Source: Dehalococcoidia bacterium (lineage in GTDB: Bacteria; Chloroflexota; Dehalococcoidia; Lucifugimonadales; CAUZJF01). Taken from it: a stretch of 64,000 nt of DNA. The notes beneath the pieces were generated by a model. That model was not told where the DNA came from, did no database searches, and saw only the letters and a list, made by a program, of their open reading frames with translations. This document shows positions 16,975 to 47,356 of this stretch, one piece after another (within the stretch, counting starts at the first letter, position 1; every line of letters starts with the position of its first letter). The DNA is taken from the NCBI GenBank assembly GCA_965197985.1, contig CBDAOG010000005.1:531404-595403 (forward strand), in the 5' to 3' direction. The position numbers and the translations under genes were made by a program.

Positions 16975-17135
16975 GATTCCCTCGTAAAAACCCGTTTTGA
17001 GGAAGTTCCAGCGCTTTAGCACATGTGAGCGCTACCGTATGTTGGGGTAGGACACGGAACAGAGACTGTATATTGTACCCAGGCAAGGGTACGGTTGTTC
17101 TAATTCGACCTGCACAGACTTTTTACGAGAGAATC
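16975..17135 (-). mobile_element. 161-bp MITE, copy A (IS1182-type ends)
   Basis: The TIRs are GATTCCCTCGTAAAAA and TTTTTACGAGAGAATC. A 6-bp TSD AACCCT lies at 16969-16974 and 17136-17141. The copy is the exact reverse complement of copies B and C as far as I can read. Confidence 0.85.
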
Positions 17136-17296
17136 AACCCTGACCATATCGTGGGCACCCTGGACGACTTCGAGCCCATAGTCTTCTCCACCGCCGCCAG
17201 CAACATCATGGACGCCGCGGTCGCTGTCACTTCGGTAGCCAAGGTAGGCAACGCAACGCCCAACGATGGCTACGGTACACCGGCTACGATGACTAA

Positions 17297-18225
17297 GAAA
17301 CTATCTCAAAATCTGAACCACAAATGCATTGATCGGTTTCTAGGACGATTCGTATGGTTTCTCCAAAAGCATCGGGAGGGACCGCATGGGGAAACAAGAG
17401 ACGCTAGAGACCATCTGGGAAGTACCGGACGAGCTTTGGGAACGGATCGAACCTATCATCCTGGAGGAAGACCCGCCCAAAGCCCGGGGCCGCAAGCGCT
17501 CTGACCCACGACAGATGCTCAACGGCATCATCTTCCGGCTGCGCAGCGGGTGCCAATGGAACCGATTGCCGAAAGAGCTTGGGGACGACAGCACCATTCA
17601 TCGCACCTTTCAACGGTGGGTGGGGACGGGCGTCTTGCACCGAATGTGGGGAGCCCTGGTGGAGGGGTGCGAAGAGTTGGATGGCGTGGACTGGGAATGG
17701 CAGGCGGCAGACGGAGCCATGGGCAAGGCACGTTTTGGGGGGACCTGATTGGGCCCAACCCTACGGACCGTGGCAAGGCTGGTACCAAGCGCAGTCTCCT
17801 TGTGGATGGAGAGGGCGGCCCCTTGAGCATTGTGGTTGCGGGAGCAAACGTGCACGATGCCAAGCTGTTGGAGGCGACCCTGGACGCCATTGTGGTCGAA
17901 CGACCACAGCCCACCGAGGAGGAACCCCAACACCTGTGTCTGGACAAAGGGTATGACAATCCTTCAGGCCGTGGGGCTGCCGCCGGACACGGCTATAGGG
18001 AGCACATCCGACGCATCGGCGAGGAGAAGCTGGACGCCTCTGGCGACAAGCGGTATCCGGCGCGCCGGTGGGTTGTGGAACGGACGCTGGCATGGCTCTC
18101 CAAGTGCCGTGCGGTCCTGGTCCGGTACGACAAGAAGGCAGCGAACTACCTCGGTGTGTTACAGCTCGCATGTGCGCTCCTGTGGTTCCGGCGACAGTGG
18201 CGTCTGGCCATTTTGAGATAGTTAC
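17297..18225 (+). mobile_element. IS5-family element (IS427/IS1031-like), 929 bp (IS5-A)
   Basis: The TIRs are GAAACTATCTCAAAAT and ATTTTGAGATAGTTAC. A direct repeat TAA lies at 17294-17296 and 18226-18228; identity extends to CTAAG on both sides. Confidence 0.85.
17386..18221 (+). CDS. IS5-family transposase in two frames (orfA 17386..17748, orfB to 18221), joined by a -1 shift at TTTTGGGGGG
   Basis: orfA ends ...AMGKARFGGT*. The -1 frame reads (G)DLIGPNPTDRGKAGTKRSLLVDGEGGPL...LCLDKGYD...ARRWVVERTLAWLSKCRAVLVRYDKK, a DDE_Tnp_1-type sequence. The shift site is at 17733-17742. Confidence 0.8.
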
Positions 18226-18512
18226 TAAGGAGGCTTCGGTCGGTCTGAAGGTGACGAAGTACGGCCGTACCACCGGTCAGACCGATGGCAGGATTTACGC
18301 CATCGGTGCCACCCTTAACGTAGGCTACGACGGCGGAGTTGCGCGGTTCGTGGACCAGATCGTTGTCATTGGTGGAGGGTTCAGCCGACCAGGAGACTCT
18401 GGGTCTCTAGTCGTGGAGCGGAAGACCAACAAGCCAGTGGCGTTGTTGTTCGCCGGAAGCAATAACTCCACAATCCTGAGCCCCATCGACCCGATCCTAG
18501 CCCGGTTTGGGT

Positions 18513-19595
18513 CGAAACGCACGGTGTTGTCAGCCGCCACAGTCCGCTGGTACTTGAAGCAGAGGATGCCAGCGAGGTCCGTTCCCGCAGGGACGCACTG
18601 GTAGGCGGCACCCGGCTGGGCGGCGGGAACGCCGAACCGGGAGTTGAACCGTGGCAGGAAGTCCGCCAGTACAGCATTGGCCTCCTCTAGCGTGCTGGCT
18701 CCGGCCAGGCGCAGCTCCATCAGCAGCCGGTCCTGGAAGGTCCCCCAGAGTCGTTCGATGCGGCCCTTGGCTTGGGGCGAATGGGCGAGTACCAACCGGA
18801 CGCCCAGCTCATTGAGCGCACGGCCCACTTGCGTCTGGGGAGTCTGGCCCGTCAGCTGCTCCTCCAAGGTCTCATTCTGAGCACGGCTCACCGTGAAGGT
18901 GCTGTGGCGATCGCTGTAGAGGGTAAGGGGGATGCCCTTGCGTTGGATGACCCCTTGCAACAACTGCATGTAGCCGTATGAGTCTTCTTGTTCACGAAAG
19001 CATCCGTAGGGAACGGTGCCGGTGGCGTCGTCTATCCCGCCGATGAGCGTGAGCCAGGGACCGCGTCCTTGGAGCCAGTCGTGGCGGCTGCCGTCCACCT
19101 GGAGCATCATCCCCTCCTGAGGATAGCGTTCGCGCCGGCGACGGTGCTTGGGTGCTCGTCGGCGGCGCGGCGTCTTGATGCCCGCCTGTAGTAGCACCCG
19201 CCGCACGGTGGACCGGGACAGGAACAGGCCCTCGCGCTCGGCCATTAACTCACTCAGGTGCGTGTGGTTCGCACCATCGTACGGGCCGGCGGCAAGGGCA
19301 ACTACCCGCTCACGAACAGCCTCACTGACCGTATGCGGGGGCCGGCGGCCACGATTGCCGTGGGCGATGGCGACCACTCCCTCCCGCCGGTACGCCGCCA
19401 ACAACCGACGGACCTGGCGCACTGACAAACCCATCAGCTCACCCGCCTGGGCGGCCGTCAGTTCTCTACTCTCCACCCGATTCAAGACTATGATCCGCTG
19501 CTGCTCTTTCCTGTTCAATGTGATTGTCTCCATGGTGACATTTTCACTGAACAGTTAAGGGGTGTCACAATCACTGACCTATCACACCAACTGAA
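18513..19595 (-). mobile_element. ISNCY-like (HTH plus rve integrase-core) element with its 3' end missing
   Basis: Transposase similarity ends at ...KYQRTVAADNTVRF (~18514). That point abuts the protease coding sequence directly. The upstream boundary (~19595) is approximate. Confidence 0.55.
18514..19533 (-). pseudogene. ISNCY-like transposase, C-terminally truncated (~341 aa retained)
   Basis: The sequence reads METITLNRKEQQRIIVLNRVESRELTAAQAGELMGLSVRQVRRLLAAYRREGVVAIAHGNRGRRP...LQVDGSRHDWL...LYSDRHSTF...QAKGRIERLWGTFQDRL. The last 61 aa of ORF 18325..19533 are antisense read-through of the protease gene. Confidence 0.65.
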
Positions 19596-19603
19596 CTCGT
19601 ACC

Positions 19604-21665: not shown

Positions 21666-21707
21666 CGATCTGAGCGCGGCCTAGAAAGGCCGGCGGCGCA
21701 ACGGCAG

Positions 21708-28541: not shown

Positions 28542-28825
28542 ACCGGTCCCAAAAACATGGGACACGGTCCGTCTGCGTGCCAAGCAGGAGCACGGGCGGC
28601 CTTGGGCAGGGCTCGGGAACGGTACTGGAGTGTCCCTCTCGACGGGTGCAGACGGCTGGGCGCATCGGCGACGAAGAACGCCCCGGCCGTGCGGCCGGTC
28701 CGGAGCACGGATGTGTGAGTAATATCGACGAATCAGAGTCAGCACCGCCTTGTGACACCGTTCGCGCGCCAGGTGGACCCGGCCCTGTGCCTCTCCTCCG
28801 GGGATGACCAGAGACGGAAGGGACG

Positions 28826-29713
28826 ATGGAACATAACGTGCCGCCAGCATTGGTATCTAATCCCGGAACTGCTGTTGGTAGCAGGTCGTCGAAGAAACCG
28901 CTGCGACATGATAGACACCGGATATGGTGCGGGGTATGGTGGTTTGAACAGACCCGCCATATTGTGCCAAATCAGGTTCTATCCATCCCCGATCCAAACG
29001 TCACAATTGCCAAAAAATGTACCGTCTTCCCGATTGAGTTCGTGGTGCGTGGATACATCACCGGAAGCACGAACACCTCCCTCTGGACGGTCTACCACAG
29101 TGGTCGGCGTCACTACTGTGGCATCGATTTGCCCGACGGCCTAATGAAAAACCAGAAGCTCCCGACGAATTACCTCACACCGACCACCAAGGAGGATGAT
29201 CACGACCGTCCGATCAGCCCTGACGAGATCGTGTCCGAGAACTGGATGACGGCCGATGATTGGGAACAATGTAGCCGCATCGCCCAGGAACTTTTCGCTT
29301 TCGGTCAAGCCAAGGCAGCGGAGCGTGGCCTAATTCTCGTCGATACCAAATATGAGATGGGCCGTGACGAGAACGGTGAGATCCTTCTGATCGACGAGAT
29401 CCACACCTCTGACTCTAGTCGCTACTGGATCGCCGACTCTTATCAACAGCGCATGCGGGAGGGACAGGAACCCGACAACGTCGACAGAGAATTCCTCCGG
29501 CTCTGGTTCAGGGAGAACTGCAACCCCTACGAGGATGAGGTCCTACCACCAGCACCGGATGACCTTGTAATCGAGCTCTCAAGACGCTACATCTACCTTT
29601 ACGAGAAGATCACCGGTCGCTCTTTCGAGTTTCCAGAGGCGGACCAACCGATCGAGACACGTTTGGAAAGCAACCTTGATTCTCTCGTAAAAAGTCTGTG
29701 CAGGTCGAATTAG
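28826..29713 (+). CDS. purC: SAICAR synthetase (long PurC type); 5' end unresolved and last 11 codons supplied by MITE-B
   Basis: Motifs are HIVPNQVLSIPDPNVTIAKKCTVFPIEFVVRGYITGS, LTPTTKEDDHDRPIS, GLILVDTKYEMGRDENGEILLIDEIHTSDSSRYW and RRYIYLYEKITG. The first ~40 codons show none of the expected ATP-binding N-terminus. From 29678 the ORF reads into the MITE (...ESNL/DSLVKSLCRSN*). Confidence 0.7.
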   Translation: MEHNVPPALVSNPGTAVGSRSSKKPLRHDRHRIWCGVWWFEQTRHIVPNQVLSIPDPNVTIAKKCTVFPIEFVVRGYITGSTNTSLWTVYHSGRRHYCGIDLPDGLMKNQKLPTNYLTPTTKEDDHDRPISPDEIVSENWMTADDWEQCSRIAQELFAFGQAKAAERGLILVDTKYEMGRDENGEILLIDEIHTSDSSRYWIADSYQQRMREGQEPDNVDREFLRLWFRENCNPYEDEVLPPAPDDLVIELSRRYIYLYEKITGRSFEFPEADQPIETRLESNLDSLVKSLCRSN

Positions 29714-29838
29714 AACAACCGTACCCTTGCCTGGGTACAATATACAGTCTCTGTTCCGTGTCCTACCCCAACATACGGTAGCGCTCACATGTGCTAAAGC
29801 GCTGGAACTTCCTCAAAACGGGTTTTTACGAGGGAATC
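29678..29838 (+). mobile_element. 161-bp MITE, copy B
   Basis: Sequence is identical to copy C. A 6-bp TSD AACCTT lies at 29672-29677 and 29839-29844. Confidence 0.85.
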
Positions 29839-29844
29839 AACCTT

Positions 29845-31825
29845 GATTCCCTCGCAAAAAGGCCTGTTTGAGATGAACCCTGGCGTGCGAAGGGGCCTGG
29901 AAGGGAGGAGGCCACGGGATGCCGGCTGCTGGCCTCACCGCACCATCTGCCGCGCTCAGGACAAGCGTGATCCCGTTGCGGTACCCCTTCCGTGGCTCAG
30001 GGCACCCGGTGGAAGCTGTGGAGCGGCGCCCTCATGCGGCCGCGACCGCAGGTACCGTCCCGACCGCCCGCTGAGCCGTGTTCTCCATCTCCACCAGGCG
30101 TGCATGGACCATCCGCTTGAAGTTGCACGCCAACGCCTTCAGGTAGACGGCAAGCCGCACCCGACGGCCCCCTCGCACCCGCAAGCGCCCAAGCCCGTGG
30201 GCGCGCTTCAGCTCGGAGTTCGTTCCCTCGATCCCGGCCCTTATGGCATACCGCTTGCGCCACTCCTCGGTGGCCTCGGCCCTCCGGCGCCGCTCGATGT
30301 TTACCTTCACCAGGTCCGCCTTGAGGACGTAGTCCCCCGCACGCCGGTCCAGCTTCACTGGGCAACGGGACCGCAAGGGGCAGGGCTCGCATGTTGTCCT
30401 GGCAAAGTGGACCTCTACCCGCTCCGGCGCATCCTCCAACTCGTACTCCTCGATGGACGGGTGGCCGGCGGGGCACACCGTGGCCTGCTCCCCTGTGACG
30501 TCGATCTGGAAGTCCGCGGCGGTGAGCGGCGGTGGTCCGTCACGCTCTCCTTCGTGCGAGTTCCCCGGCGCCGACCCCGGCCACCGGGCTCACCAGTTCC
30601 GTTCCCCGGCGCGAGGCTTCGAAGGCATTGCGGCCCGACCCATACGCCGTGTCGGCGAAGAGCTCGTCCGGTCGGACCTTCCGCTCCGCGAGCCCGTCAA
30701 CGACCGGCACGCTCACGTCGGTGTCGCTCCCACTCGAGGGGGTCACCTCCACGTGGGTGATGAGCTGGGTGGCGTTCTCCTCGTGGCAGGTCTCCGCCAC
30801 CTGCACCTCGTACCCCTTCCCCTTGTGGCCGCTGTAGGTCACATCCGGGTCGTGGGGCGATTGCAGCGAGTCGGCGGACACCTGCTTCGGGTCCTTCAAG
30901 GCCACGGGCACCTTGCATTCCCCAGCATCGTCGTCATCGTCCCTGGGGCGCCCGTCCCGGTGTTTGCCCACATGGCACTGCTCCCGCAGCAGCCGCTCCA
31001 GCAGCCGGTACTCCTCCAGCTGGGCAGCAGTCGTGCCATGGAACCGGTCCACCAGCCGGTAGAGGTCCCGGGCACAGACCGAAAGGCGTCGCCGACCCTC
31101 CCCCGTGCGGGCGTCCTCGTAGTGGGTCGCCTCGTCTTCTTCCTTCAAATAGCGCCCCAGGAGGCCCTCCGGAACCACAGGGCGAAGCTCTGGGTGCTCC
31201 CAGCGCAAGGCCCGCAGGAACAACCGCATCGTCTCACAGAACAGGCCCAGCCGGGTGAGTGTAGCGATGTTGCTCATGATGTGGGTGGAGTTCAGCCGTT
31301 GCTTTCCGGTGCGTATGCCCAGCGCCTGGATGATCCGGTCCGTGGTCTCCTGGAAAGCCAGCCGGCCACCATCGTGCTGCATCAGGCGAACTCGGAAGTT
31401 GTGGAGGGTCTTCTGGGGCAGGTGGGTCTCCTCGATGTCCAGCCGCAGGGCGTGGTGCCAGAGCAGGTTGAACTCTAGCTGCTCCAGGGCTTCACCGTCG
31501 GTGAGGTTGAACATCTCTTTGAGAAGGTGGACCCCGAGGACGGTCTGCACCGCTCGGTTGGGACGACCGTTGTCCGCGCAGTACATCGGAGCAAAGAGCT
31601 CCTCGTCAATCAGGGGGAGCGCCTCGTTTCGGAAAACCTCGGCCCAACTCCCCTCCAGGCGCTTAGCCTTCTTCGGCGTCACCAGGAACTGGGACTGCCA
31701 GAGGCTCTCTTGCGGGTCTCGCGCTCGGAACATGCTCCCCTCCCTCGCCCGGGCGCTGCCCCAACGCCCTTTCCCCACATTATCCTCCCATTGCCCCCGG
31801 AGGACGAGGGGTTTTTACGAGGGAT
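29845..31825 (-). mobile_element. IS1182-family element, likely autonomous relative of the MITE (~1.98 kb)
   Basis: The left end, GATTCCCTCGCAAAAAGGCCTGTTTGAG, matches the MITE end GATTCCCTCGTAAAAACCCGTTTTGAG at 15 of the first 16 positions. The right end is ...GGGGTTTTTACGAGGGAT (to ~31825) and directly abuts the IS21 end; its last ~3 bp are unclear. Confidence 0.7.
30032..31733 (-). pseudogene. IS1182-family transposase split into two frames near 30480-30540
   Basis: The N-terminal ORF starts at ATG 31733: MFRARDPQESLWQSQFLV..., ...NGRPNRAVQTVLGVHLLKEMFNLTDGEALEQLEFNLLWHHAL.... The C-terminal ORF reads ...DFQIDVTGEQATVCPAGHPS... and ...YAIRAGIEGTNSELKRAHGLGRLRVRG...ALACNFKRM. Confidence 0.75.
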
Positions 31826-31937
31826 GTGAATGGCGGAGAGATAATGTACCGGCAGGGCGGCTCAAGAGCTGAGATGTGGCGCTTGAAAAGCGTACCGCCT
31901 GTCGCCTTCAATCAGGAACGACCGAACCTGACTGAAG

Positions 31938-33446
31938 GTGGATTGGATGTACAAGGTGGGTATTTACCTCCGTGTTCGCAAGGCTTGTTTCGTCGAAGGG
32001 ATGAGCGTCCGAGAGGCGGCCCGAGTGTTCGGGCTACACCGGGACACGGTGCGCAAGATGCTCGAGTACTCCGTGCCCCCAGGGTATCGACGGCAACGAC
32101 CGGCTCGCAGACCGAAGCTCGATCCATATAAGGGTGTGATGGACCAGATCCTGGAGCAGGATCTGAGCTCACCGAAGAAGCAGCGTCACACCGCCAAGCG
32201 TATCTACGAACGGCTCAGAGACGAACACGGCTTCCCCGGCAAGTACACGATAGTCAAAGACTACGTTCGAGAACGCCGTCGTCATACCCGCGAGATGTTC
32301 TTACCTCTGTCCCTCCCTCCGGGACATGCCCAGTGCGACTACGGCGAAGCTCGAGTGATCATCGGCGGAGTGGAACGCAAAGCCCACTACTTCGCCCTGG
32401 ACCTCCCTCACAGCGACGGGTGCTATGTGAAGGCGTATCCCGCCGAGACGACGGAGTCATTCTGCGACGGACACGTCTCCGCCTTCGCGTTCCTGGGCGG
32501 AGTGCCTCAGAGCATCCTCTACGACAACACCACGCTCGCGGTAGCCAGAATCCTGGGAGATGGTCGCCAGCAGCGGACCAGGGTGTTCTCCGAGCTTCAG
32601 TCCCACTACCTGTTCGAGGACCGGTTCGGCCGTCCAGGCAAAGGGAACGATAAGGGCAAAGTAGAAGGTCTGGTCGGCTATGTCCGCCGGAACTTCCTGG
32701 TGCCCATTCCATCGTTCGAGAGCTTCGATGCCCTCAATGCTCATCTGGAGCAACACTGCCTCAGACGGTTCGAAGATCGACTCCGCGGCCACAACGAGAC
32801 GATAGGAGAACGGCTGGAGCGGGACCTGGAGAAGCTGCTGCCTCTGCCGGCCGTACCGTACGACGCCAGCGACAAGCACGCGACGAGGGTCAGTTCTCTG
32901 TCCCTGGTCAGATACCGGACCAATGACTATTCGGTCCCGGTGGCCTACGGTCATCGGGACGTTCTGGTCCGTGGATATGTACACGAGGTTGTGATCAGCT
33001 GTGGCGCTGAAGTCATCGCCCGCCATCGGCGGTCCTACGATCGAGACGACTTCGTCTTCGACCCTTTCCATTACCTGCCGCTCCTTGAGAAGAAGACGAG
33101 GGCATTGGATCAGGCGGCGCCGCTGGTTGGATGGGAGTTGCCCGAGGAGTTCGGAGTGTTGCGGCGGTTGCTGGAGTCTCGGATGGGCAAGCGAGGAAAG
33201 AGGGAGTTCGTGCAGGTGCTCAGACTGATGGAGAACTTCCAGCCGGAAGAAGTCCACGACGCCGTACGAGACGCCATTCGACTCGGGGCTGTGAGCTTCG
33301 ATGCTGTCAAGCACCTGGTGCTGTGCAGGATCGAGGGTCGACCGCCTAGACTCGACATGGAGTTGTACCCGTATCTGCCCAGGACCAACGTTGCAACAAC
33401 CTCGACCAGGGACTACATGGCTCTCCTGGCGGGGAGCCGGTCATGA
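31938..33446 (+). CDS. istA: IS21-family transposase IstA
   Basis: 502 aa. An HTH (GMSVREAARVFGLHRDTVRKML) is followed by a DDE region: HAQCDYGEA, ...YVKAYPAETTESF... and ...ILYDNTTLAV. Confidence 0.9.
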   Translation: MDWMYKVGIYLRVRKACFVEGMSVREAARVFGLHRDTVRKMLEYSVPPGYRRQRPARRPKLDPYKGVMDQILEQDLSSPKKQRHTAKRIYERLRDEHGFPGKYTIVKDYVRERRRHTREMFLPLSLPPGHAQCDYGEARVIIGGVERKAHYFALDLPHSDGCYVKAYPAETTESFCDGHVSAFAFLGGVPQSILYDNTTLAVARILGDGRQQRTRVFSELQSHYLFEDRFGRPGKGNDKGKVEGLVGYVRRNFLVPIPSFESFDALNAHLEQHCLRRFEDRLRGHNETIGERLERDLEKLLPLPAVPYDASDKHATRVSSLSLVRYRTNDYSVPVAYGHRDVLVRGYVHEVVISCGAEVIARHRRSYDRDDFVFDPFHYLPLLEKKTRALDQAAPLVGWELPEEFGVLRRLLESRMGKRGKREFVQVLRLMENFQPEEVHDAVRDAIRLGAVSFDAVKHLVLCRIEGRPPRLDMELYPYLPRTNVATTSTRDYMALLAGSRS

Positions 33447-34211
33447 CCAACAAGTCCACGATGTTGCTCGAACACAACCTCAAGCAACTCAAGCTCCCCA
33501 CGTTCCTGAGGGAGTACGACAAGCTGGCATCCCAGTGTGCCAGTGAGGGAGCCGACCATCCGGACTACCTGCTGCGACTATCGGAGTTGGAGCTGATCGA
33601 CCGTCACCATCGCATGGTGGAACGTCGGATCAAAGCAGCCCGCTTCCCGACGACCAAGAGTCTCGACACCTTCGACTTCCTGTCTATGCCGTCCCTGAAC
33701 AAGGCTCTGGTTCTGGAGCTGGCACGATGCGAGTACATTGAGCGCCCCCACAACGTCATCGCTCTCGGCAACAGTGGCACCGGCAAGACCCATATCGCCC
33801 TCGGTCTCGGTCTGGCTGCGTGTCAGAAGGGACTGTCCGTGGGCTTCACCACCGCCGCTGCTCTGGTTCACGAGCTGATCGAGGCCAGGGACGAACGGCG
33901 TCTGCTCAACCTGCAGAGAAGGCTCGCACGACTCAAGCTTCTGATCATCGACGAACTGGGCTTCGTGCCCTTGTCCAAGACTGGCGCCGAGCTGCTCTTC
34001 GAGGTGTTCAGCCAGCGTTACGAGCGTGGATCGGTCCTGGTGACCTCCAAGTGAGCCCTTCGTCGAGTGGACCGAGGTGTTCGGCTCTGAACGGCTGACC
34101 GGAGCTCTCCCCGACCGCCTCACCCACCATGTCGACATCCTGGAGATGAACGGGGACAGCTACCGACTCAAGCACAGCAAGAAGACTTCTGGCCGCCAGC
34201 TATCTGACTGA
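33443..34211 (+). pseudogene. istB: IS21 helper ATPase IstB, frameshifted near 34050
   Basis: Walker A is GNSGTGKTH and Walker B is LLIIDELG. The ORF stops at ...GSVLVTSK*. The next frame continues PFVEWTEVFGSERLTGALPDRLTHHVDILEMNGDSYRLKHSKK... to TGA 34209-34211. This indicates one extra nucleotide between TCC and CCC. Confidence 0.8.
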
Positions 34212-34258
34212 CCCTGATCTCCAACGCCCCACGAACCTTGATGCCCATTCTACGGCGT

Positions 34259-35248: not shown

Positions 35249-35332
35249 CGATGCGGTCTCTACTGAGCCACGAGCCAAGCATCGGACGAAATCATGCAAG
35301 CGTGCCGACTCCGGCACCCTGAAGTGAGGAAG

Positions 35333-35372
35333 CCAGGGAGGGGTCTTACCTCTTCTCCCGCCTCCGGGAGAA
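35333..35372 (-). repeat. hairpin plus GAGGTAAGAC repeat ('GEG-type') unit
   Basis: The minus strand reads ttctcccggaggcgggagaagaggtaagacccctccc. It lies ~95 nt upstream of the Ldh_2 start in the same orientation. Confidence 0.5.
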
Positions 35373-36602
35373 GATAGAGATGGGTACAAACCGGATACAT
35401 TGGTAACAGATAGACCGGAGACATGGGTAACACATTGGGCGAAGATGGGGCCGATCCCATCAGGAGGAGTGTGTTGCCCTGGAAACAGACGAGTCCGGAG
35501 GAAGAGCGAAAAGAGTTCCTGGAATGGTGGAAGAGGGGGGAAGTGAGCTTCGTGTCGCTGTGCCGACGGTTCGGTATAAGCCGTAAGACGGGATACAAGC
35601 GGGTGAATCGGTACCGGGCGTATGGTTTTGAGGGAGTGGGAGACCGTAGCCGAGCTCCGATTCGTCGGCCGAACAAGACGCCTTTGGCAGTAGCCGAGCG
35701 TGTGATCGGTGTAAGACGGGCCCATCCGAACTGGGGACCTAAGAAAGTGGTGGCGTCGCTTCGGAATGCCGAGCCCAACGCGTCGTGGCCTGCGTCGAGC
35801 ACGGCGGGAGAGATCCTTGACCGAGCAGGGCTGGTGAAGCGTCGAAAACGTCGACGGCATGCAGCGCCTTGGAGCGAGCCGTTTGCGGCGGCAGAAAGGC
35901 CCAATGACGTGTGGTCTATCGACTTCAAGGGGTGGTTCCGAACGGGAGATAGGACCCGGATCGACCCTTTGACGGTGCAGAACGCCGCCTCGCGATACCT
36001 GTTGGTCTGCGAATGGGCTGCGGCAACCTAACCACCACGAAGCGCGAAGGGTGCTTGAGCAGGCCTTTCGGGAGTATGGACTTCCATCGACCATTCGGAC
36101 CGACAACGGACCACCCTTTGCCAGTGTGGGCTTGGGTAGCTTGTCGCAGCTGGCGGTATGGTGGGTCAAGCTGGGCATCGTGCCTGAGCGGATCGAACCA
36201 GGTCACCCGGAGCAAAACGGACGACTGGAGCGACTGCACCGTACTCTGAAGGCAGAAACGGCAAGTCCGCCAAGGGCAACCAGGCGGAGGCAGCAGAGAG
36301 CCTTCGACACCTTTCGCCTGGACTACAACACCGAACGGCCACATGAGGCACTGGCACAGCAGCCTCCCGCCAGCCAGTACCATCCGTCGGCTCGGTCCTA
36401 CCCGCGTCGGATAACCGCCCCAGAGTACGGAGTCGGGGCGACTGTGCGGCAGGTGCGTACCAACGGTCAGATCAAGTGGAAGGGCGACATGATCTACCTC
36501 AGCTGGGCACTCAAAGGCGAGCCCGTTGGCCTGGTGCCACAGGATGATCGCTACTGGACCATCTGGTTTGGTCCCCTGTCTATCGGGCTGTTGGATGACC
36601 AC

Positions 36603-37970
36603 GAGGTACCCTCAAAAAGTGTGTAAACGGTCAGGCGGTGTACCCTCTCTCTGAACAAGACGGGCTCAAGGCCCAAGAGAGGAGATACACCGCCCATGAG
36701 GAAGGAAAGCACTGAGAGTAGGTCGGAGTCAAGGCCGGAGTGGGAGCAGTTGGAGGATTGGGTGCGAAGCCAGGTCCAGAGGCTGGTCCAAGAGTTGCTG
36801 GAGGAGGAGGTGACGGCGTTTCTGGGAAGGGCGAAGTCGGCGCTCAGGTCCGACTCGGACTCAGATACCGGCTATCGGAACGGATACGGCAGAGCCCGGA
36901 GGCTTACGCTGAGTTCGGGCACGATACAGCTTAGGCGGCCACGAGTCCGCGATACCGAGGAGCAGTTCGAGAGCCGGCTGCTGCCGCTGTTCGTCAACAG
37001 GACCAGGAAGGTTGCTGAGTTGATCCCCGAGCTGTACCTACACGGTCTATCCGAAGGCGACTTCGATCTGGCTTTGCGGGGGCTGCTGGGAGAGGACGCA
37101 CCGGTATCGGCGAGCACGGTGGCCCGGTTGAAGTCCAAGTGGAACGATGAGCTTGCCCAATGGCGCAGCCGGCCCCTCGATGACCTGGAAGTGGTCTACA
37201 TGTGGGTGGATGGAGTCTACGTCAAGGCTGGTCTTGAGAAGGAGAAGGCGGCGGTACTGGTGGTGATGGCGGCCCTGAGCGACGGGAGAAAGGTGGTGGT
37301 GAGCGCTGTTCCCGGATACAGGGAGTCCACAGAGAACTGGTCCGAGGTGCTCAGGGACATCAAGCGCCGGGGCTTGAGCTGCCCGAGGCTGGTGGTTGGA
37401 GACGGACACCTGGGCATCTGGGGAGCTCTGCGCAACGTCTATCCGCAGGCGGCAGAGCAACGCTGCTGGAACCACAAGATCGTAAACGTGCTCGCCAAGC
37501 TTCCAAAGCGACAACAGGACCAGGCCAAGCTCATGCTGCGTACTATCCCCTACGCCCAGACTCGGACAGAGGCTGAGCGGCTCAGGACGGTGTTCACCAG
37601 GTGGTGCGGCGACCATTCCTACGAGGCGGCCTCAGAGGCCTTGGAGCGGGACTGGGACCGCATGATCACCTTCTATGACTTCCCAAAGGAGCACTGGGGG
37701 CACCTTCGCACGACGAACCCGGTAGAATCACCCTTCGCGGCCCTCAGGCTTCGGACCGATGCCGCCAAGCGCTACAAGAGGGTCGATCGGGCGATAGCGG
37801 TGATCTGGAAAATGTTGATGGTCGCCGAACAGCGCTTCAGGCGTCTGAAGGCCCCTGAGTTGATCGAAGACGTCTATCTCGGTGCACAGTATGCGGATGG
37901 AATCGCCATTGAATCAACGGCTGAGAAGGTCGCCGCCTGATGTCGTTTACACACCTATTGACGTAACCTC
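36603..37970 (+). mobile_element. IS256-family element (IS256-B), 1368 bp, nested in the IS481 element
   Basis: The TIRs are GAGGTACCCTCAAAAAGTGTGTAAACGG and the reverse complement GAGGTTACGTCAATAGGTGTGTAAACGA. A perfect 8-bp TSD ATGACCAC lies at 36595-36602 and 37971-37978. Confidence 0.9.
36696..37940 (+). CDS. IS256-family transposase
   Basis: 414 aa with motifs YRNGYGRARRLTLSSGTIQLRRPRVRD, YMWVDGVYVKAG, VVGDGHLGIW and QRCWNHKIVNVL. Confidence 0.9.
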   Translation: MRKESTESRSESRPEWEQLEDWVRSQVQRLVQELLEEEVTAFLGRAKSALRSDSDSDTGYRNGYGRARRLTLSSGTIQLRRPRVRDTEEQFESRLLPLFVNRTRKVAELIPELYLHGLSEGDFDLALRGLLGEDAPVSASTVARLKSKWNDELAQWRSRPLDDLEVVYMWVDGVYVKAGLEKEKAAVLVVMAALSDGRKVVVSAVPGYRESTENWSEVLRDIKRRGLSCPRLVVGDGHLGIWGALRNVYPQAAEQRCWNHKIVNVLAKLPKRQQDQAKLMLRTIPYAQTRTEAERLRTVFTRWCGDHSYEAASEALERDWDRMITFYDFPKEHWGHLRTTNPVESPFAALRLRTDAAKRYKRVDRAIAVIWKMLMVAEQRFRRLKAPELIEDVYLGAQYADGIAIESTAEKVAA

Positions 37971-40285: not shown

Positions 40286-40534
40286 GTCGAGCTAAAAACT
40301 AGCTGAGATAGGGGTGCGCATTCGGGCAGATAGTCTATCAGATTACGTTTCACGCATTACGTTTGAGGGACCGGCGTCGTCTGTATGCCTACGCGATAGC
40401 GTCCCTTTGGATGCGCTCGCGAACCCCTTCCGACAGGAGGGAGGGGCTACGGGAAAGCAGGTCTCGAGCAAGGCCATTCGGAGGCGTAGGCGCTTCGGAT
40501 ACTTACCGACCAGGGCGTTCCGTCCGGTTCTAAG

Positions 40535-42246
40535 CCCAAATCCACCGAAGGGATGACTATGCAGCAGCGGAACGGGCGATAGGGGCAAGGGAGGGCGATG
40601 GTCCGGGCACGATTTGGGGTAGAGGGGGGCCGGTGTTTGTCTTCAGTTGCCGCGGGGAGACTTTGTGACCGTCTGCGAATGTTGGTCAGGGCGAGATAGC
40701 GGGGAGAGGACGCAGCAAGAGGCACTCGCAGACCGGACTGGCGCGAGTTCGCGGGGACGTTCGGTTGGCCGGATGGCGGCCGGTTGCCGCCGCCGCCGTC
40801 AGGCAGGGAGTGGCAGGGCGCGCAATCGGGCCAGGGCACGATCGAACTGGGCTTCCCAAGGCCAGCGCTGTGGCAGATGCAGTGTGAGGCGGCGCGCCGA
40901 GCGGGTGATCCGTCCGGCCAGGGAGAAGAACCGCCGCCGGAGGGTCTTGGTGGTCACCACCTGCTCGCCCAGACCGATGCGCGCTGTCCAGCGGGCGATG
41001 TTGTGGGCCATCACCTGTACCGCCAGCCAGGCGGCGTTGGCGGCGAAGCGGCCCGAGGGGAGATGGTTCAACCCCACACCGTGCTTGAGGTCTCGGATGG
41101 CATTCTCGATCTCGGCGTGGCGGCGATGGTCGGCCTCCAGTTCGAGCATCTCCCCGTCCCGGTCGGTGATGAAGCCGTGATAGCTGTAGGTGGCGAAGAG
41201 GGCCAGCTGGGAACCGGGCGTGGGCTTCACACGCCGGACGATGAGCCGCACCGGCGCGGCGTCAGGTTCACTCTGGAAGGGAGTGCAGGTGGTCTCGGCC
41301 ACATCGGCGGTGCCGTCCATCCAGTAAGGAATCGGCGTCCAGGCATCTTCGGGTATCGCCTCGATGAGATTGTGCAGGCTTTTATGCTGGCGGATGGTGA
41401 TGGAGAAGCGGACATCCATCTTGCGGCAGACGGATACCACGCCATGAGTGTAGAACCCGCTGTCGGCCCGTAGCGTGAGTCGTCTGTTGGCCCCGGCGTA
41501 GCGCACCCGTCCCACCGTCTCCCGCAGGAAGTGGGCGGCGCCGCGGGCGGTGTTGGCCCGGCCCTCGCGCAGCCGGGACATCAGCACGTCTCCGGTGCCG
41601 GCGGCGATGGCCAGCAGTGGGTGGTAGCCCCGCTTGCCGGTATAGCCGTGGTGGCGGGCGCCCTCCTTGGCCAGTCCGTAGGTCTCGCAGATGGTGGAAT
41701 CGAGGTCGATGGTGAACGGCGCGTCGCCGGGTCCGGCCCCAGCGGCCCAGGCCCGGGCCAGCAGCTCCCGGCTCACCCGGTCCAGCTGGCGGACGTGGCC
41801 CCACCGGAAGCTGCGCAGGAAGGTGCCCAGGGTGGATGGCGCCTTGACCGTGCCGCCCAGGGTGCAGGCCGTCCCCCCGGTGCGCAACACATCAGCGTCG
41901 TCGATGCAGTCGCCGCCAGCCATGGCTGAGGCCACCAGGGTCATCAGCTTGTCTCCGGTGTTGGCCCGCCCCGGCGCGCCGCCCAGGTCAAGGTGATGGT
42001 CAACGAGTTCCCGCAGGCCCAGATGCCGGGCGAGGGTGGCCGGCAGGAGCAGACCGGCATTGGCCACCAGGCGGTGATCGTCAAAGACGATACGGATACG
42101 GTCGGGCTGGTTGCGTGGTAGCATCTATTGGGTGCTCCTTCTCTGGGACTGTTTTGCTGTTACAAAACCATTATCCCAGATTCAGAAGAGCACCCTCTGG
42201 CCTCTTCAGGATGCTAACCCGACGCCCTCCCTCGGTGGATTCGGGC
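40535..42246 (-). mobile_element. IS1380-A copy 2 (1712 bp)
   Basis: Same ends as copy 1. A perfect 4-bp duplication TAAG lies at 40531-40534 and 42247-42250. It is inserted exactly at the stop codon of the GH-like gene 42246..43610. Confidence 0.9.
40799..42124 (-). CDS. IS1380-family transposase
   Basis: 441 aa. It has two substitutions relative to copies 3 and 4: ANRRLTL and DGTADVAE. Confidence 0.9.
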   Translation of the reverse strand: MLPRNQPDRIRIVFDDHRLVANAGLLLPATLARHLGLRELVDHHLDLGGAPGRANTGDKLMTLVASAMAGGDCIDDADVLRTGGTACTLGGTVKAPSTLGTFLRSFRWGHVRQLDRVSRELLARAWAAGAGPGDAPFTIDLDSTICETYGLAKEGARHHGYTGKRGYHPLLAIAAGTGDVLMSRLREGRANTARGAAHFLRETVGRVRYAGANRRLTLRADSGFYTHGVVSVCRKMDVRFSITIRQHKSLHNLIEAIPEDAWTPIPYWMDGTADVAETTCTPFQSEPDAAPVRLIVRRVKPTPGSQLALFATYSYHGFITDRDGEMLELEADHRRHAEIENAIRDLKHGVGLNHLPSGRFAANAAWLAVQVMAHNIARWTARIGLGEQVVTTKTLRRRFFSLAGRITRSARRLTLHLPQRWPWEAQFDRALARLRALPLPA

Positions 42247-43610
42247 TAAGACGAAAACCAGACCGAAAAAACCTCCGCGTTACGGAGCCTAAGTCGAACG
42301 CTGCGCTCGGCCGGGGCGTTATCGGGCGACGGGGCGTCGGCCCAGCGGAAGACGTGGTCGAGCGAGTCGGCGCTCAATGGAACGCAACTGGCGCCGTCCA
42401 AACCCGACACGACGGCCCCGCTCTCGTCGAGGACCTCGGCCGTGATCTGGCCCTTCGACGCGTCCGCGTTCACGTGAAGCTCGCGGCCGGCTGGCATCGA
42501 TGTCGTCGCGACCTCGCCGTTGTTGCCGGAGTGAAGCCCGACTAGCCTGTCCTTCGGCCAGCTAGCCATGCCAATCGCGCGTTGCCAGCGGCCCTTCTTC
42601 TGCCCGCCGTGGGGATGGTCCATGCCGGTGTAGTAGAGGCGAAGCTCGTCCCCATCCTCAACGAACGACTCTGCGGCGCGGATGAAGCCGCCATCGAACT
42701 CACCGCGCTGCCCCATCTCCACGATCGGTCTGCGGTCGCCGACGCGCTCCCACGTCCGGCCGTCCCTGCTGCTGACTAGCTGGATGTCGATGATCCCCTG
42801 GGTGTTCACACCCGGCGTGCCCATCGCGTCGGTGGCGCGCAGGACGTCCATGAAGCCGAGGAGCACCGGCCCGTACCTGGCTATCGGGATGGCATAGATC
42901 TCAGTGGCGCTGTGGATGTCGCCACCGGTCCACTCGTCGTCCTGCTCGTCGGGGACGACCGCGGGCTGAGGCAGCGTCCACTCGAAGCCGTCTTCGCTGG
43001 TCGTCCAGTTCTGGATGCGGCGACGCCTGCCTCGGACCTCCAGAAAGCGCTTGACCATGCCGCGGAACAGTTCGTCTCTGTGATCGTACGCGGCCCAGCT
43101 GACGTCGCCGTATCGGTAGATGACCGGCTCCTCCGACCAGTCGGTCCAGCCGAAGCCGTCCTTGGAGAAACAGATATGATGACTGCCGCCGAGGTAGGCC
43201 GTTATTGAGTATTCTCGCCCTGCTCCCATCGTGGGCGTACGCATGACGCTCGCGGTCGCGCTGTGCCGGGTCTCCGGGTCCAGGAAGACGTTGTTGTCCT
43301 TGGAACCGGCTGGGTCGTCGTAGAGCCCGAGGGACGGCAGCGTCCAGTCCCTGCCGTTCTCGCTCTCGGCATGCATGTGGGAGTTCTGTCCCTTGGTCGA
43401 CGATGTGTACCACATCCGGTCGACGCCGTTCTCTCGGAGCACGGTCCCAACAATGAGCTGGCCTGTCTCCCACTCTCGGTCGGCGGCCAGCACGGGGTTG
43501 CCCTCGAACTTCCGGCCAGGATGGATGCGCCGCTCCACGCCCCGCATCGACTGTACCTGGGCGTCGTCGATGAACAGCACCCTGTCTAAGCTGATGTCGT
43601 TAGAACTCAC
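42246..43610 (-). CDS. unassigned beta-propeller glycoside-hydrolase-like protein (paralog GH-like-1)
   Basis: The N-terminus of ORF 42246..43799 runs into IS1380-A copy 3. The best internal start is GTG 43610 (VSSNDISLDRVLFIDDAQV...). It shares with 48611..49999 and 61336..62892 the motifs LF(I/V)DD, GNPV and MWY. It also shares repeated S-x-(D/N)-G-x-x-W blade motifs and the C-terminal LRNAEVFSVW. Confidence 0.6.
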   Translation of the reverse strand: MSSNDISLDRVLFIDDAQVQSMRGVERRIHPGRKFEGNPVLAADREWETGQLIVGTVLRENGVDRMWYTSSTKGQNSHMHAESENGRDWTLPSLGLYDDPAGSKDNNVFLDPETRHSATASVMRTPTMGAGREYSITAYLGGSHHICFSKDGFGWTDWSEEPVIYRYGDVSWAAYDHRDELFRGMVKRFLEVRGRRRRIQNWTTSEDGFEWTLPQPAVVPDEQDDEWTGGDIHSATEIYAIPIARYGPVLLGFMDVLRATDAMGTPGVNTQGIIDIQLVSSRDGRTWERVGDRRPIVEMGQRGEFDGGFIRAAESFVEDGDELRLYYTGMDHPHGGQKKGRWQRAIGMASWPKDRLVGLHSGNNGEVATTSMPAGRELHVNADASKGQITAEVLDESGAVVSGLDGASCVPLSADSLDHVFRWADAPSPDNAPAERSVRLRLRNAEVFSVWFSS

Positions 43611-43620
43611 GGTTTCTGAT

Positions 43621-43650
43621 GTCTTACCTCCTCTCCCGCCGCTGGAGACC
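43621..43650 (-). repeat. GEG-type hairpin repeat unit
   Basis: The minus strand reads ggtctccagcggcgggagaggaggtaagac. It lies immediately upstream of GTG 43610 in the same orientation. Confidence 0.5.
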
Positions 43651-43663
43651 TTTGAGTAACTAA

Positions 43664-45375
43664 TCCCGAATCCACCGAGGGAGGGCGTCGGGTTAGCATC
43701 CTGAAGTGGCCAGAGGGTGCTCTTCTGAATCTGGGATAATGGTTTTGTGACAGCAAAACAGTCCCAGAGAAGGAGCACCCAATAGATGCTACCACGCAAC
43801 CAGCCCGACCGTATCCGTATCGTCTTTGACGATCACCGCCTGGTGGCCAATGCCGGTCTGCTCCTGCCGGCCACCCTCGCCCGGCATCTGGGCCTGCGGG
43901 AACTCGTTGACCATCACCTTGACCTGGGCGGCGCGCCGGGGCGGGCCAACACCGGAGACAAGCTGATGACCCTGGTGGCCTCAGCCATGGCTGGCGGCGA
44001 CTGCATCGACGACGCTGATGTGTTGCGCACCGGGGGGACGGCCTGCACCCTGGGCGGCACGGTCAAGGCGCCATCCACCCTGGGCACCTTCCTGCGCAGC
44101 TTCCGGTGGGGCCACGTCCGCCAGCTGGACCGGGTGAGCCGGGAGCTGCTGGCCCGGGCCTGGGCCGCTGGGGCCGGACCCGGCGACGCGCCGTTCACCA
44201 TCGACCTCGATTCCACCATCTGCGAGACCTACGGACTGGCCAAGGAGGGCGCCCGCCACCACGGCTATACCGGCAAGCGGGGCTACCACCCACTGCTGGC
44301 CATCGCCGCCGGCACCGGAGACGTGCTGATGTCCCGGCTGCGCGAGGGCCGGGCCAACACCGCCCGCGGCGCCGCCCACTTCCTGCGGGAGACGGTGGGA
44401 CGGGTGCGCTACGCCGGGGCCAACGGACGACTCACGCTACGGGCCGACAGCGGGTTCTACACTCATGGCGTGGTATCCGTCTGCCGCAAGATGGATGTCC
44501 GCTTCTCCATCACCATCCGCCAGCATAAAAGCCTGCACAATCTCATCGAGGCGATACCCGAAGATGCCTGGACGCCGATTCCTTACTGGATGGACGGCGC
44601 CGCCGATGTGGCCGAGACCACCTGCACTCCCTTCCAGAGTGAACCTGACGCCGCGCCGGTGCGGCTCATCGTCCGGCGTGTGAAGCCCACGCCCGGTTCC
44701 CAGCTGGCCCTCTTCGCCACCTACAGCTATCACGGCTTCATCACCGACCGGGACGGGGAGATGCTCGAACTGGAGGCCGACCATCGCCGCCACGCCGAGA
44801 TCGAGAATGCCATCCGAGACCTCAAGCACGGTGTGGGGTTGAACCATCTCCCCTCGGGCCGCTTCGCCGCCAACGCCGCCTGGCTGGCGGTACAGGTGAT
44901 GGCCCACAACATCGCCCGCTGGACAGCGCGCATCGGTCTGGGCGAGCAGGTGGTGACCACCAAGACCCTCCGGCGGCGGTTCTTCTCCCTGGCCGGACGG
45001 ATCACCCGCTCGGCGCGCCGCCTCACACTGCATCTGCCACAGCGCTGGCCTTGGGAAGCCCAGTTCGATCGTGCCCTGGCCCGATTGCGCGCCCTGCCAC
45101 TCCCTGCCTGACGGCGGCGGCGGCAACCGGCCGCCATCCGGCCAACCGAACGTCCCCGCGAACTCGCGCCAGTCCGGTCTGCGAGTGCCTCTTGCTGTGT
45201 CCTCTCCCCGCTATCTCGCCCTGACCAACATTCGCAGACGGTCACAAAGTCTCCCCGCGGCAACTGAAGACAAACACCGGCCCCCCTCTACCCCAAATCG
45301 TGCCCGGACCATCGCCCTCCCTTGCCCCTATCGCCCGTTCCGCTGCTGCATAGTCATCCCTTCGGTGGATTTGGG
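43664..45375 (+). mobile_element. IS1380-A copy 3 (1712 bp)
   Basis: Same ends; the first base is T instead of G. A perfect duplication CTAA lies at 43660-43663 and 45376-45379. Confidence 0.9.
43786..45111 (+). CDS. IS1380-family transposase
   Basis: 441 aa, identical in the supplied translation to the copy-4 protein. Confidence 0.9.
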   Translation: MLPRNQPDRIRIVFDDHRLVANAGLLLPATLARHLGLRELVDHHLDLGGAPGRANTGDKLMTLVASAMAGGDCIDDADVLRTGGTACTLGGTVKAPSTLGTFLRSFRWGHVRQLDRVSRELLARAWAAGAGPGDAPFTIDLDSTICETYGLAKEGARHHGYTGKRGYHPLLAIAAGTGDVLMSRLREGRANTARGAAHFLRETVGRVRYAGANGRLTLRADSGFYTHGVVSVCRKMDVRFSITIRQHKSLHNLIEAIPEDAWTPIPYWMDGAADVAETTCTPFQSEPDAAPVRLIVRRVKPTPGSQLALFATYSYHGFITDRDGEMLELEADHRRHAEIENAIRDLKHGVGLNHLPSGRFAANAAWLAVQVMAHNIARWTARIGLGEQVVTTKTLRRRFFSLAGRITRSARRLTLHLPQRWPWEAQFDRALARLRALPLPA

Positions 45376-45518
45376 CTAAGGTGGTTTTCGATACTCATGG
45401 TTGTATGGTTCAGATTGATAGGTTCGTGGCTTTGAGCAGAACCTGTGATAGTCAGGCCCGGCCTACTAATGCTGTTAAAGAGCCGCTTGGACCTCGATTT
45501 CGAGGTTCGTTCGACCCT

Positions 45519-45638
45519 TCAGGGCGCACTCCTCCTAGGAACTCGCGCTTCATGAATAGGCATCAGTCTGTCCGCTCGCCGCAAGTTGTATGCCATGCAC
45601 TTGACCGATATTTCCCAGATGGAATCCAGTGCTTTCAT
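45519..45638 (-). other. probable remnant of a transposase C-terminus (IS5/IS1182-like ...MAYNLRR motif)
   Basis: The minus-strand reading is (GLSQDGVF)MKALDSIWEISVKCMAYNLRRADRLMPIHEARVPRRSAP*. No upstream catalytic region is present. Confidence 0.3.
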
Positions 45639-45857
45639 AAACACACCATCCTGAGACAGTCCAGACTATAAGATCGCCTGCTGAAGTTGTCAACTGCCAC
45701 CAACCGCGCTAATATCACTTCATCTAGAGAAACAGGGTCTCCAAACCACTTGGAAAGGCTCTAAACGGATTGTTCAGACCGAACCTCACGCTGCAAGTCG
45801 CGCACCTTGCTCAGGGCAGCCTCGATATGATCACGATTCCCTAACAGACACATGCTC

Positions 45858-47356
45858 CTATCCAGGATTGAAACGAAGTCTCCCTATCCGCTCCAGCATT
45901 TCATCGAACATCTCCCTGGTCACCATCACCTCGGCAAGCTGGAACACAAGCCTCCTCGCATGACGCACCAGTCGCCCGCCTATCTTGATGAGTCTCGTCT
46001 GAATACTTGTCAGGGACCAGCTCTTTATCGCTTCTGGCAGAGCCAGCCTTCTGAAGAAGTTGCCCAGATTGTATGCCAGGATGAATAGCCACAGCCTCAC
46101 CTGATTAGCCACGAACTTATGGCACGAGAGCCGAGTCCAATTGAGGGCGTATTTCCCCTCTTTAATCCACTGCTCTGCTGTGCCTCTGCCATTGTAGAAG
46201 CTGACTATTCCCTTCGTTGGATAGCTCAGGTTGGTTACGATGAAGCCTACTCTTGGGAACAGTTCTCCCTGATGCCACTCCACCTTGGCCACTACTCTTC
46301 GAGGAACATTCCAACTCTGGGCCTGATAAACGAAGTCGTGATACGAGACGATGGGCTTTTGAGAGGGCCACTCGGTAGGCCGTACCAACAGGTGAGATAT
46401 TTCCTTCTGAAGCACTTCGTTCGCCGGAAGCCTTATGGCGTAGCCGATATGCCTTGTCTCCAGGTACTCGTAAATCTCAGGCTTGGCAGAAGCAGCGTCT
46501 GCTCGAAACAGCAGCCTCACCGCCAGCTTCAGGTAGCGCTCGACGATGGGATTGATGAACTCCTTCCAGCCATCGGCGCTGTGGACGTTGCCTGGTCTGA
46601 GAACCGCCCCTTCGCAATCTCCAAACTGGTTGAAGCAGAACAAGGGGTGATAGCACATGCATCCAAAGTGGCCGTTGTAGGCTGCTTCCTCCTGCTCGCC
46701 ATGCACCGGACTCTCCGAACTGTCGATGTCCAGGATGATACGCCTGTGTACGGTCTTGGCTAATGCACGTTTTATCCATTCGACATTCAGCCGCTCAATG
46801 CCCTTGAGGTTTTCCTTTTGTGTCAGCAACTCCGTCTCGAACCTACCCATCTCGCTGGTGCTGGCCGCGTTCCTGTCAGGGCCTTTCCAGCCTACCACTA
46901 CTCTCAGGGCTGGGTCTTGGGAAAGGCGGTCGGCATCATTGGTGTCGTCGTATCCAGCGAGGCGGCTGTAGACTGACTGTCTCAGCAGTGGGATTAGCTG
47001 ATGCAGGATGTTTTTGCCCGTTCGACTCTCTTTGAGGAATTCGTCGGCAGAGTCGGTCAGGCTTGATTCTCTCGTAAAAAGTCTGTGCAGGTCGAATTAG
47101 AACAACCGTACCCTTGCCTGGGTACAATATACAGTCTCTGTTCCGTGTCCTACCCCAACATACGGTAGCGCTCACATGTGCTAAAGCGCTGGAACTTCCT
47201 CAAAACGGGTTTTTACGAGGGAATCAGGCTTAGGGCGTCATCAAGCTCTCTGCACGCCAGCAGTCCTGCGTCTGAGGTGATGGTAGCACCGCGAAACTCC
47301 ACGCGAACTTTGGAGTCAAAGTCGAGCTTGAGAGGGGTCTTTTCGTCGTCACCCAT
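45858..47356 (-). pseudogene. IS1380-family transposase interrupted by MITE-C
   Basis: ATG 47356 follows GGAGG: MGDDEKTPLKLDFDSKVRVEFRGATITSDAGLLACRELDDALSL, then the MITE, then TDSADEFLKESRTGKNILHQLIPLLRQSVYSRLAGYDDTNDADRLSQDPALRVVVGWKG.... The rest is ORF 45858..46898 (ILDIDSSESPVHG, LFRADAASA, GTAEQWIKEGK). Removing 167 bp restores 1332 nt. Confidence 0.8.
47065..47225 (+). mobile_element. 161-bp MITE, copy C
   Basis: Identical to copy B. A 6-bp TSD AGGCTT lies at 47059-47064 and 47226-47231. Confidence 0.85.

Follow-up and report, generated by a model that had tools for sequence, protein, structure and literature searches.

What is the short unit that occurs three times, unchanged, within one stretch of a Dehalococcoidia genome, and which machinery put it there? 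We have addressed this question for positions 531,404 to 595,403 of contig CBDAOG010000005.1 (assembly GCA_965197985.1), a stretch of 64,000 nucleotides that is referred to below as the window and numbered from its first base. A preliminary description, made from the letters of the DNA, had proposed that the 161-bp unit represents a new family of miniature inverted-repeat transposable elements (MITEs). Our analysis leads to the same class, and we consider it very probable that the unit is a MITE that arose as a non-autonomous derivative, or travels as a hitch-hiker, of an IS1182-like insertion sequence (IS) of about 1.98 kb found in Dehalococcoidia.

The three units, copies A, B and C in Table 1, are identical in 161 of 161 bases, as had been claimed. 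They start with GATTCTCTCGTAAAAA and finish with TTTTTACGAGGGAATC, ends that form the predicted terminal inverted repeat of 16 bp with a single mismatch at position 6. This mismatch is invariant in all 76 copies that we have listed from the window and from other genomes, copies that were all retrieved by searching for the terminal repeats themselves. In the window, the terminal motif was counted 8 times, compared with a chance expectation of 0.74 from shuffled sequences, and the G+C content of the unit is 48%, compared to 62% for the window. The unit has no coding capacity: both shadow open reading frames (ORFs) quoted in the preliminary description were found, and all six frames hold nothing beyond short ORFs of this type. 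The perfect 6-bp duplications AACCCT, AACCTT and AGGCTT were likewise located at copies A, B and C, respectively. Of two internal palindromes noted before, GTACCC-ttgcct-GGGTAC at unit position 44 has a stem that is kept in 63 of the 76 listed copies and a loop that varies. The other, CACATGTG at unit position 109, is present in the window as described and is not family-wide; it is found in only 11 of the 76 and thus marks one subfamily.

The family extends well beyond the window. A scan of one genome per species for two terminal repeats at a distance of 114-144 bases yielded at least 66 loci in 19 assemblies, and all listed loci are situated in metagenome-assembled genomes (MAGs) of Dehalococcoidia. 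Among the listed loci of the scan there are 73 copies, to which the three from the window are added; 73 of the resulting 76 measure 161 bp and 3 measure 160 bp. Their pairwise identity ranges from 85 to 100% with a median of 94%, and the variation among them falls into discrete haplotypes that define subfamilies. At least 17 copies reside in a single MAG (isolate bd3fcf20). A BLAST search over all fetched sequence returned 80 full-length copies and several partial matches, namely one in L062 with bases deleted from one of its terminal repeats, one in L044 (3078-3289) that an internal tandem duplication of 51 bp has lengthened to 212 bp and whose flanks do not match each other, a 45-bp remnant (L068) and a fusion to an insertion sequence (L069) that is described below. 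The unit had no match in plasmid and phage collections, nor did the gapped terminal-repeat pattern in viral contigs, so that no vector for a spread between species was identified.

Copies outside the window carry target duplications as well. As evidenced by the flanks of the listed copies, 70 of the 76 are bordered by a perfect duplication, of 6 bp in 63 cases, of 7 bp in 6 and of 8 bp in one. The flanks differ between copies, with 61 of the 63 six-bp sites being unique among them, and the unit is thus not a segment of some longer repeat. These 61 sites define a palindromic target logo, C|A(A/T)NN(T/A)T|G. Its outer positions are nearly absolute, with A at position 1 in 61/61 sites and T at position 6 in 60/61, positions 2 and 5 are A or T and the middle two show no preference. 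Just outside the duplicated bases, C is found on the left in 39/61 sites and G on the right in 41/61. The commonest duplication is AACCTT (11/61), the one that also flanks copy B, and insertions have occurred in either orientation and within coding sequences.

A candidate for the autonomous partner of this MITE stands directly beside copy B. The preliminary description had missed this likely parent, an IS1182-like element that begins 6 bases past the MITE, so that the right-hand AACCTT of copy B doubles as the spacer between both elements. It starts with GATTCCCTCGCAAAAAGG... at 29845, with GATTCCCTCGCAAAAAGGCCTG as the terminus on the downstream side of the transposase gene. On the upstream side the terminus is TTTTTACGAGGGA, cut at 31824, and reading of the junction directly showed that an IS21-like element has removed the last 3 bp. 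The transposase itself is split by a single frameshift into two parts, 30540-31778 and 30032-30478, as determined by tblastn against intact relatives. The DUF772 and DDE_Tnp_1_6 domains of Pfam were found in the window fragments as well as in the proteins of the related copies L039 and L049. Among NCBIfam models, IS1182 (NF033551) fits these transposases best, with an end-to-end alignment and E values of 6e-48 to 3e-51, but with 164-175 bits against a curated cut-off of 270, and for this reason it is termed IS1182-like here, as a remote member of that family or a sister group. According to its ISfinder description, the IS1182 family comprises elements of about 1.3-2 kb with inverted repeats and a duplication that is variable or absent.

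Intact copies of this IS in related genomes have lengths of 1970-2006 bp and encode transposases of 562-591 amino acids (Table 1). The window copy is 97-99% identical to the copies in L044, L066, L036 and L069, with 97% for the one that spans L036 and L066. The transposase is widespread in public data, where one cluster at 90% identity holds 3057 members and 1866 homologues were retrieved at E <= 1e-30. The link to the MITE is found in the termini. Upstream of the transposase gene the IS ends in GATTCCCTCGTAAAAACCCC, and the right end of the MITE is identical to it for 19 nucleotides (GATTCCCTCGTAAAAACCC); downstream of the gene it ends in GATTCCCTCGCAAAAAGGCCTGT, which resembles the left end of the MITE, GATTCTCTCGTAAAAAGTCTGT. 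Ends of both elements hence match over 15-19 nucleotides, and the intact IS copies, too, produce 6-bp duplications. The right end of the IS21-like element and the purC tail, which would have revealed a duplication of the defective IS copy and the order in which IS and MITE arrived, were looked for in the window and not found.

All three insertions had been assigned to genes, and these targets were recovered and refined. Copy A has split the gene for a secreted protein with a PKD domain and a Nal1-like serine peptidase domain. After removal of the MITE and one copy of the duplication a long reading frame is restored, and the corresponding protein aligns with a 438-residue homologue (P0122, 54% identity) across the junction and into the Nal1-like peptidase domain. 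Homology of this gene to its relatives is lost a second time near 17380, and a transposase-like gene with HTH domains and rve_3 follows on the reverse strand at 18325-19533. A public protein, P0121, equals the site A gene with a 14-residue tail encoded by the MITE as its end, and the identical insertion consequently exists in a deposited assembly. In another genome (protein P0126, locus L068) this gene, too, is disrupted, but at another place, following residue 141. An empty site for insertion A was not found, the only near-identical public alleles being P0121, with the same insertion, and P0126, broken elsewhere.

Copy B marks the 3' end of purC, and for this site the empty counterpart was found. 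Metagenome contig L067, 99.7% identical to the window over 28794-29677, holds the uninterrupted sequence ...GGAAAGC-AACCTT-GAAGGAATCACATGA (GAAGG...), and it matches the left flank of copy B with 100% identity to the last base of the duplication. Intact orthologues of purC terminate in ...ESNLEGIT, and the window gene lacks its final four codons (EGIT, then stop) beyond the insertion. The comparison with L067 further revealed a deletion of 431 bp at the 5' side that has taken the start codon and the first 77 codons, and neither the sequence of L067 3' of the insertion point nor the missing purC tail was present when searched for in the window. With both ends gone, what the window retains of purC is a pseudogene remnant. 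If the organism synthesises purines, it must do so with a functional copy at another place. In yet another assembly, the gene caller produced a 458-residue protein (P0012) in which the N-terminus of an IS1380-type transposase is fused to PurC, so that in a related genome another insertion sequence has struck purC in an independent event.

Copy C, finally, is inserted into the transposase gene of an IS1380-family element, and without the MITE a 443-residue DDE_Tnp_1_4 transposase is restored (Pfam E = 4.9e-134). A scan around this copy detected no promoter-like site and, on the reverse strand, a single weak terminator-like hairpin. Within the window, the MITE acts simply as an insertional mutagen that cuts a peptidase gene, a purC remnant and the transposase gene of another IS. 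The recent mobilisation proposed in the preliminary description is plausible, given that the copies are identical, that all three break genes and that a close relative retains the empty purC site, features from which its timing can only be inferred.

Together these data would fit a scheme in which the MITE has kept only the terminal 17-20 bp or so that are presumably bound by a DDE transposase. The enzyme, supplied by a full-length copy elsewhere in the genome, would bind both MITE ends, cut the target C|A(A/T)NN(T/A)T|G with a stagger of 6 bp and insert the unit there, and the 6-bp duplication would arise when this cut is repaired. Small size, terminal inverted repeats, duplications, the lack of coding capacity, dispersed copies and ends held in common with a transposase-encoding IS all agree with the original interpretation as a MITE. 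We rest this assignment on what can be read directly, that is the anatomy of the unit, its copy number, duplications and logo, the common ends, the restored frames, one empty site and an IS-MITE fusion with a duplication of its own.

Several observations do weigh against it. The flanks of 6 of the 76 listed copies are mismatched and show no matching duplication. The middle 125 bp or so of the MITE match nothing in the IS, so that these data do not show that the MITE arose from it by a simple internal deletion. The window holds no functional transposase, as the adjoining IS is frameshifted and has lost its tip, and the active source must lie elsewhere in the genome. Furthermore, the assembly behind P0121 may be the window's own source, and polymorphism at site A is not demonstrated by it. 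No transposition event was observed; the action of the transposase in trans, its staggered cut and the age of the insertions are inferred from the DNA. On balance, this is a genuine and probably recently active MITE family, and its likely autonomous partner has been identified.

Could the unit owe its conservation to selection rather than to mobility, as a repeat that the host has recruited, be it for a structured small RNA, as a terminator cassette or for the binding of a protein? Its length is constant at 160-161 bp and its identity remains at 85-100% across the 19 listed species-level MAGs, the fold is more stable than that of shuffled controls on both strands (z = -4.2 and -3.2), the GTACCC/GGGTAC stem persists in most listed copies around a variable loop, and there is the one terminator-like hairpin. 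However, the stability of the fold derives mostly from pairing between the two terminal repeats, a scan of copy B and its flanks against Rfam gave no match at E <= 1, and consensus folding of 47 distinct copies revealed a compensatory change in 0 of 40 predicted pairs. Following this lack of covariation the structured-RNA reading was dropped. Copies occur in both orientations and may interrupt coding sequences, as all three window copies do, and the discrete subfamily haplotypes are as expected from the amplification of master copies. A host function of this kind consequently appears quite unlikely to us.

Another objection to a free-standing MITE would be that the unit is immobile by itself, being debris or a piece of something larger, for instance of the 2107-bp IS-MITE chimera or of a composite of IS and MITE, and that it spreads only together with this. 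A gap of 6 bp separates copy B from an IS end, one IS in contig CBDEFX010000001 has MITEs on both sides, and the 2107-bp fusion in L069 joins the two elements outright. In contrast, 77 of the 80 full-length copies are solitary, with their own duplication and with no IS adjoining. Where a copy does neighbour the IS, the spacer matches the outer flank of the MITE, which argues for a small element inserted beside the IS and not for joint movement. With own matching flanks in all three copies near an IS, membership in a larger element was excluded for all but the one fused copy, and as a general explanation it is highly improbable. That the identity of copies was created by assembly or polishing of a long-read MAG, with divergent repeats collapsed or homogenised, is hardly conceivable. 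The window does resemble an IS-rich MAG, and the frameshift in the adjoining transposase could be an indel error, but each copy has unique flanks and a perfect duplication of its own, identical or near-identical units recur in the independent assemblies L062, L068, L035 and L060, and reads easily span repeats of 161 bp. The MITE with an IS1182-like partner accordingly remains our preferred reading.

The arrangement at copy B is not a singular one. A MITE was found exactly 6 bp from an IS end in three places, in the window (29838/29845), in L036 (7040/7047) and in L066 (1029/1036). The latter two belong to one array on contig CBDEFX010000001.1 (L036 6880-8000 and L066 1-1196), where an intact IS of 1983 bp is placed between two MITEs at 6 bp (AAGTTT) on each side, all three in the same orientation. 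The spacer is an exact match to the outer flank of the MITE in the window and in L066 and agrees in 5 of 6 bases in L036, and each case therefore looks like an insertion into the 6 bp that flank a resident element. Note that, with G as the first and C as the last base of the element, every insertion recreates C-AANNTT-G on both of its sides. A scan of metagenomes for such junctions uncovered two more, both between IS and IS, at L070 66-103 (AACCTT) and at L071 3566-3603 (AAGATT; from marine sediment), and these facing ends could be tandem dimers or assembled circular forms.

In L069 the two elements have become one. The chimera at 1407-3513 spans 2107 bp and consists of the IS up to 19 bp short of its downstream tip, followed by nucleotides 12-161 of the MITE. 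It is bounded by GATTCCCTCGTAAAAA on one side and by the right end of the MITE on the other, and a perfect AAGTTT duplication flanks the whole, while two facing terminal repeats and the spacer between them are deleted. The presence of a duplication around the chimera suggests that the transposase of the IS uses a MITE end. In the simplest reading of this single locus, a MITE would have lain end-to-end with an IS, the palindromic junction of the two ends would then have been deleted, and the fused element would have transposed as one unit by means of the MITE end.

Regeneration of the target was considered as the sole cause of the abutting junctions and rejected, as a rough estimate predicts junctions between MITE and MITE as well, and 0 were found among the 80 full-length copies. 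Of six IS copies that were found through their transposase, one (L069) has a MITE attached. Since most of the other IS copies were found through a nearby MITE, and in view of this one in six and of the lack of MITE-MITE junctions, we regard the excess of abutting junctions as suggestive and not as established. It is possible, if rather doubtful, that the IS1182-like transposase inserts elements preferentially beside resident ends of its own kind, and that the resulting 6-bp palindromic junctions can collapse and so weld a MITE onto an IS as in L069. If true, targeting of ends together with junction collapse would be a route for insertion sequences to swap ends and to spawn MITEs, and the end-targeting would offer a first hint at how members of the IS1182 family transpose, a pathway that to our knowledge is still uncharacterised.

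Table 1. Coordinates and properties of the elements and genes discussed, with positions counted from the first base of the window
Feature	Position	Strand	Description
MITE copy A	16975..17135	-	161 bp, inside PKD + Nal1-like peptidase gene
Duplication AACCCT (+ strand), copy A	16969-16974 and 17136-17141		
MITE copy B	29678..29838	+	161 bp, 3' end of purC pseudogene
Duplication AACCTT, copy B	29672-29677 and 29839-29844		
MITE copy C	47065..47225	+	161 bp, inside IS1380-family transposase gene
Duplication AGGCTT, copy C	47059-47064 and 47226-47231		
Site A host gene	16102..17380	+	Secreted PKD-domain + Nal1-like serine peptidase, split by copy A
Site B host gene	28934..29677	+	purC (SAICAR synthetase) fragment, residues 78-325 of 329-aa protein
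Site C host gene	45858..47353 (upper coordinate approximate)	-	Transposase gene of second IS1380-family element
IS1182-like element, candidate autonomous partner	29845..31824	-	Begins 6 bases past copy B, about 1.98 kb
Intact IS, L039			1998 bp; 587-aa transposase; duplication CTGTTT
Intact IS, L049			1989 bp; 573-aa transposase; duplication AAGCTT
Intact IS, L036 + L066 (contiguous chunks, CBDEFX010000001.1)			1983 bp; 566 aa; duplication AAGTTT
Intact IS, L072-L076			1970-2006 bp; 562-591 aa; perfect AAGATT in L075, flanks of the others mismatched
IS21-like element	31825..34054	+	istA 31938-33446; istB 33443-34054, truncated (203 aa)
1.72-kb IS1380-family copies	14347-16069, 40528-42250 (inverted), 43660-45380, 50546-52265, 62926-64000 (partial, inverted)		

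The surroundings of the MITE are rich in other mobile DNA. In the region 29845-37940, mobile elements are stacked, nested in or abutting one another, beginning with the IS1182-like and the IS21-like element. Pfam identifies rve and Mu-transpos_C_2 in one protein of the latter and IstB_IS21 in the next, and no matching right end for it was found in the window. A reverse-strand gene of the Ldh_2 family follows, and then an IS256/Mutator-family transposase at 36696-37940. An IS of 1.72 kb from the IS1380 family, with a transposase of 441 residues, is present in five window copies of 99-100% mutual identity, and many of the fetched loci hold relatives of it with 85-91% identity; this is probably the most active element in the window. 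Two reverse-strand ORFs at 42246-43799 (517 residues) and 48611-50059 (482 residues) each adjoin one of its copies. They have about 70% DNA identity in stretches and no Pfam match. Further on, 57917-61400 is composed of three tandem units of about 1.38 kb with 62-79% DNA identity and repeated motifs of the ...SEDGGETW... type that look like three paralogous genes in a row.

For the Dehalococcoidia, this work provides a characterised pair of MITE and insertion sequence with a clear target logo. Pair and logo are useful for the annotation of IS-rich long-read MAGs of this group. They help to recognise pseudogenes such as the truncated peptidase gene and the purC remnant of the window, and to avoid that protein tails encoded by a MITE, as in P0121, are taken for real sequence. 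Our knowledge of transposition as such is unchanged, and only the 6-bp MITE-IS junctions and the fused chimera could lead to a new mechanism.

How does the element compare with known systems? The comparison with other MITEs was based on their published descriptions. MITEPye1 from Paracoccus yeei is related to ISPye18, a member of the IS1182 family, and it resembles the window MITE in being small and non-coding, with IS1182-type terminal repeats, short direct repeats, a predicted mobilisation in trans and a long stem-loop (PMC11578231). Its direct repeats of 4 bp, inverted repeats of 18 bp, 1-3 copies per chromosome and mostly intergenic location (PMC11578231) differ from the duplications of 6 bp, the repeats of 16 bp, the at least 17 copies in one MAG and the exclusively intragenic window copies that we observe in another phylum. 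Closer in size are the MITEs of 160 and 169 bp, with 14 and 7 copies, that derive from the IS1182-family element ISMac2 in Methanosarcina acetivorans (PMC3852290). They too are multi-copy with a partner of this family, but reside in archaeal hosts and have inverted repeats of 25-26 bp and direct repeats of 4 or 0 bp (PMC3852290), compared to 16 bp and 6 bp here.

With respect to target choice, some members of the IS1182 family are directed to palindromes according to the review by Siguier et al. as it is cited in PMC5678879, and IS1272 replaces stem-loop targets and leaves no duplication (PMC5678879). The partner IS shares with this group a transposase best described by the IS1182 model and a preference for palindromic targets. 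Unlike IS1272, the element described here uses a palindromic consensus of 8 bp and leaves a clean 6-bp duplication. In the dimers and circles of IS30, IS21 and IS911, an abutted junction of inverted repeat, spacer and inverted repeat is a reactive transposition intermediate that arises from one element. Our junctions are similar in that related ends face each other across a spacer of duplication length, in three cases between MITE and IS and, in the metagenomes, in two between IS and IS. However, the partners in the MITE-IS junctions are distinct elements, circular forms were not seen, and the spacer agrees with the outer flank, so that these junctions look like ordinary insertions into a regenerated target.

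In the literature that we could search, no report on MITEs in Dehalococcoidia or on a MITE-IS pair there was found, and the claim of a new family stands to the extent that the unit is new to the literature and to the libraries searchable here; as a derivative of the IS1182 type it belongs to a kind that is known. Host phylum, the 6-bp duplication, a defined palindromic target of 8 bp and copy number set the window MITE apart from the IS1182-family MITEs already described, and it is of the same kind as these.

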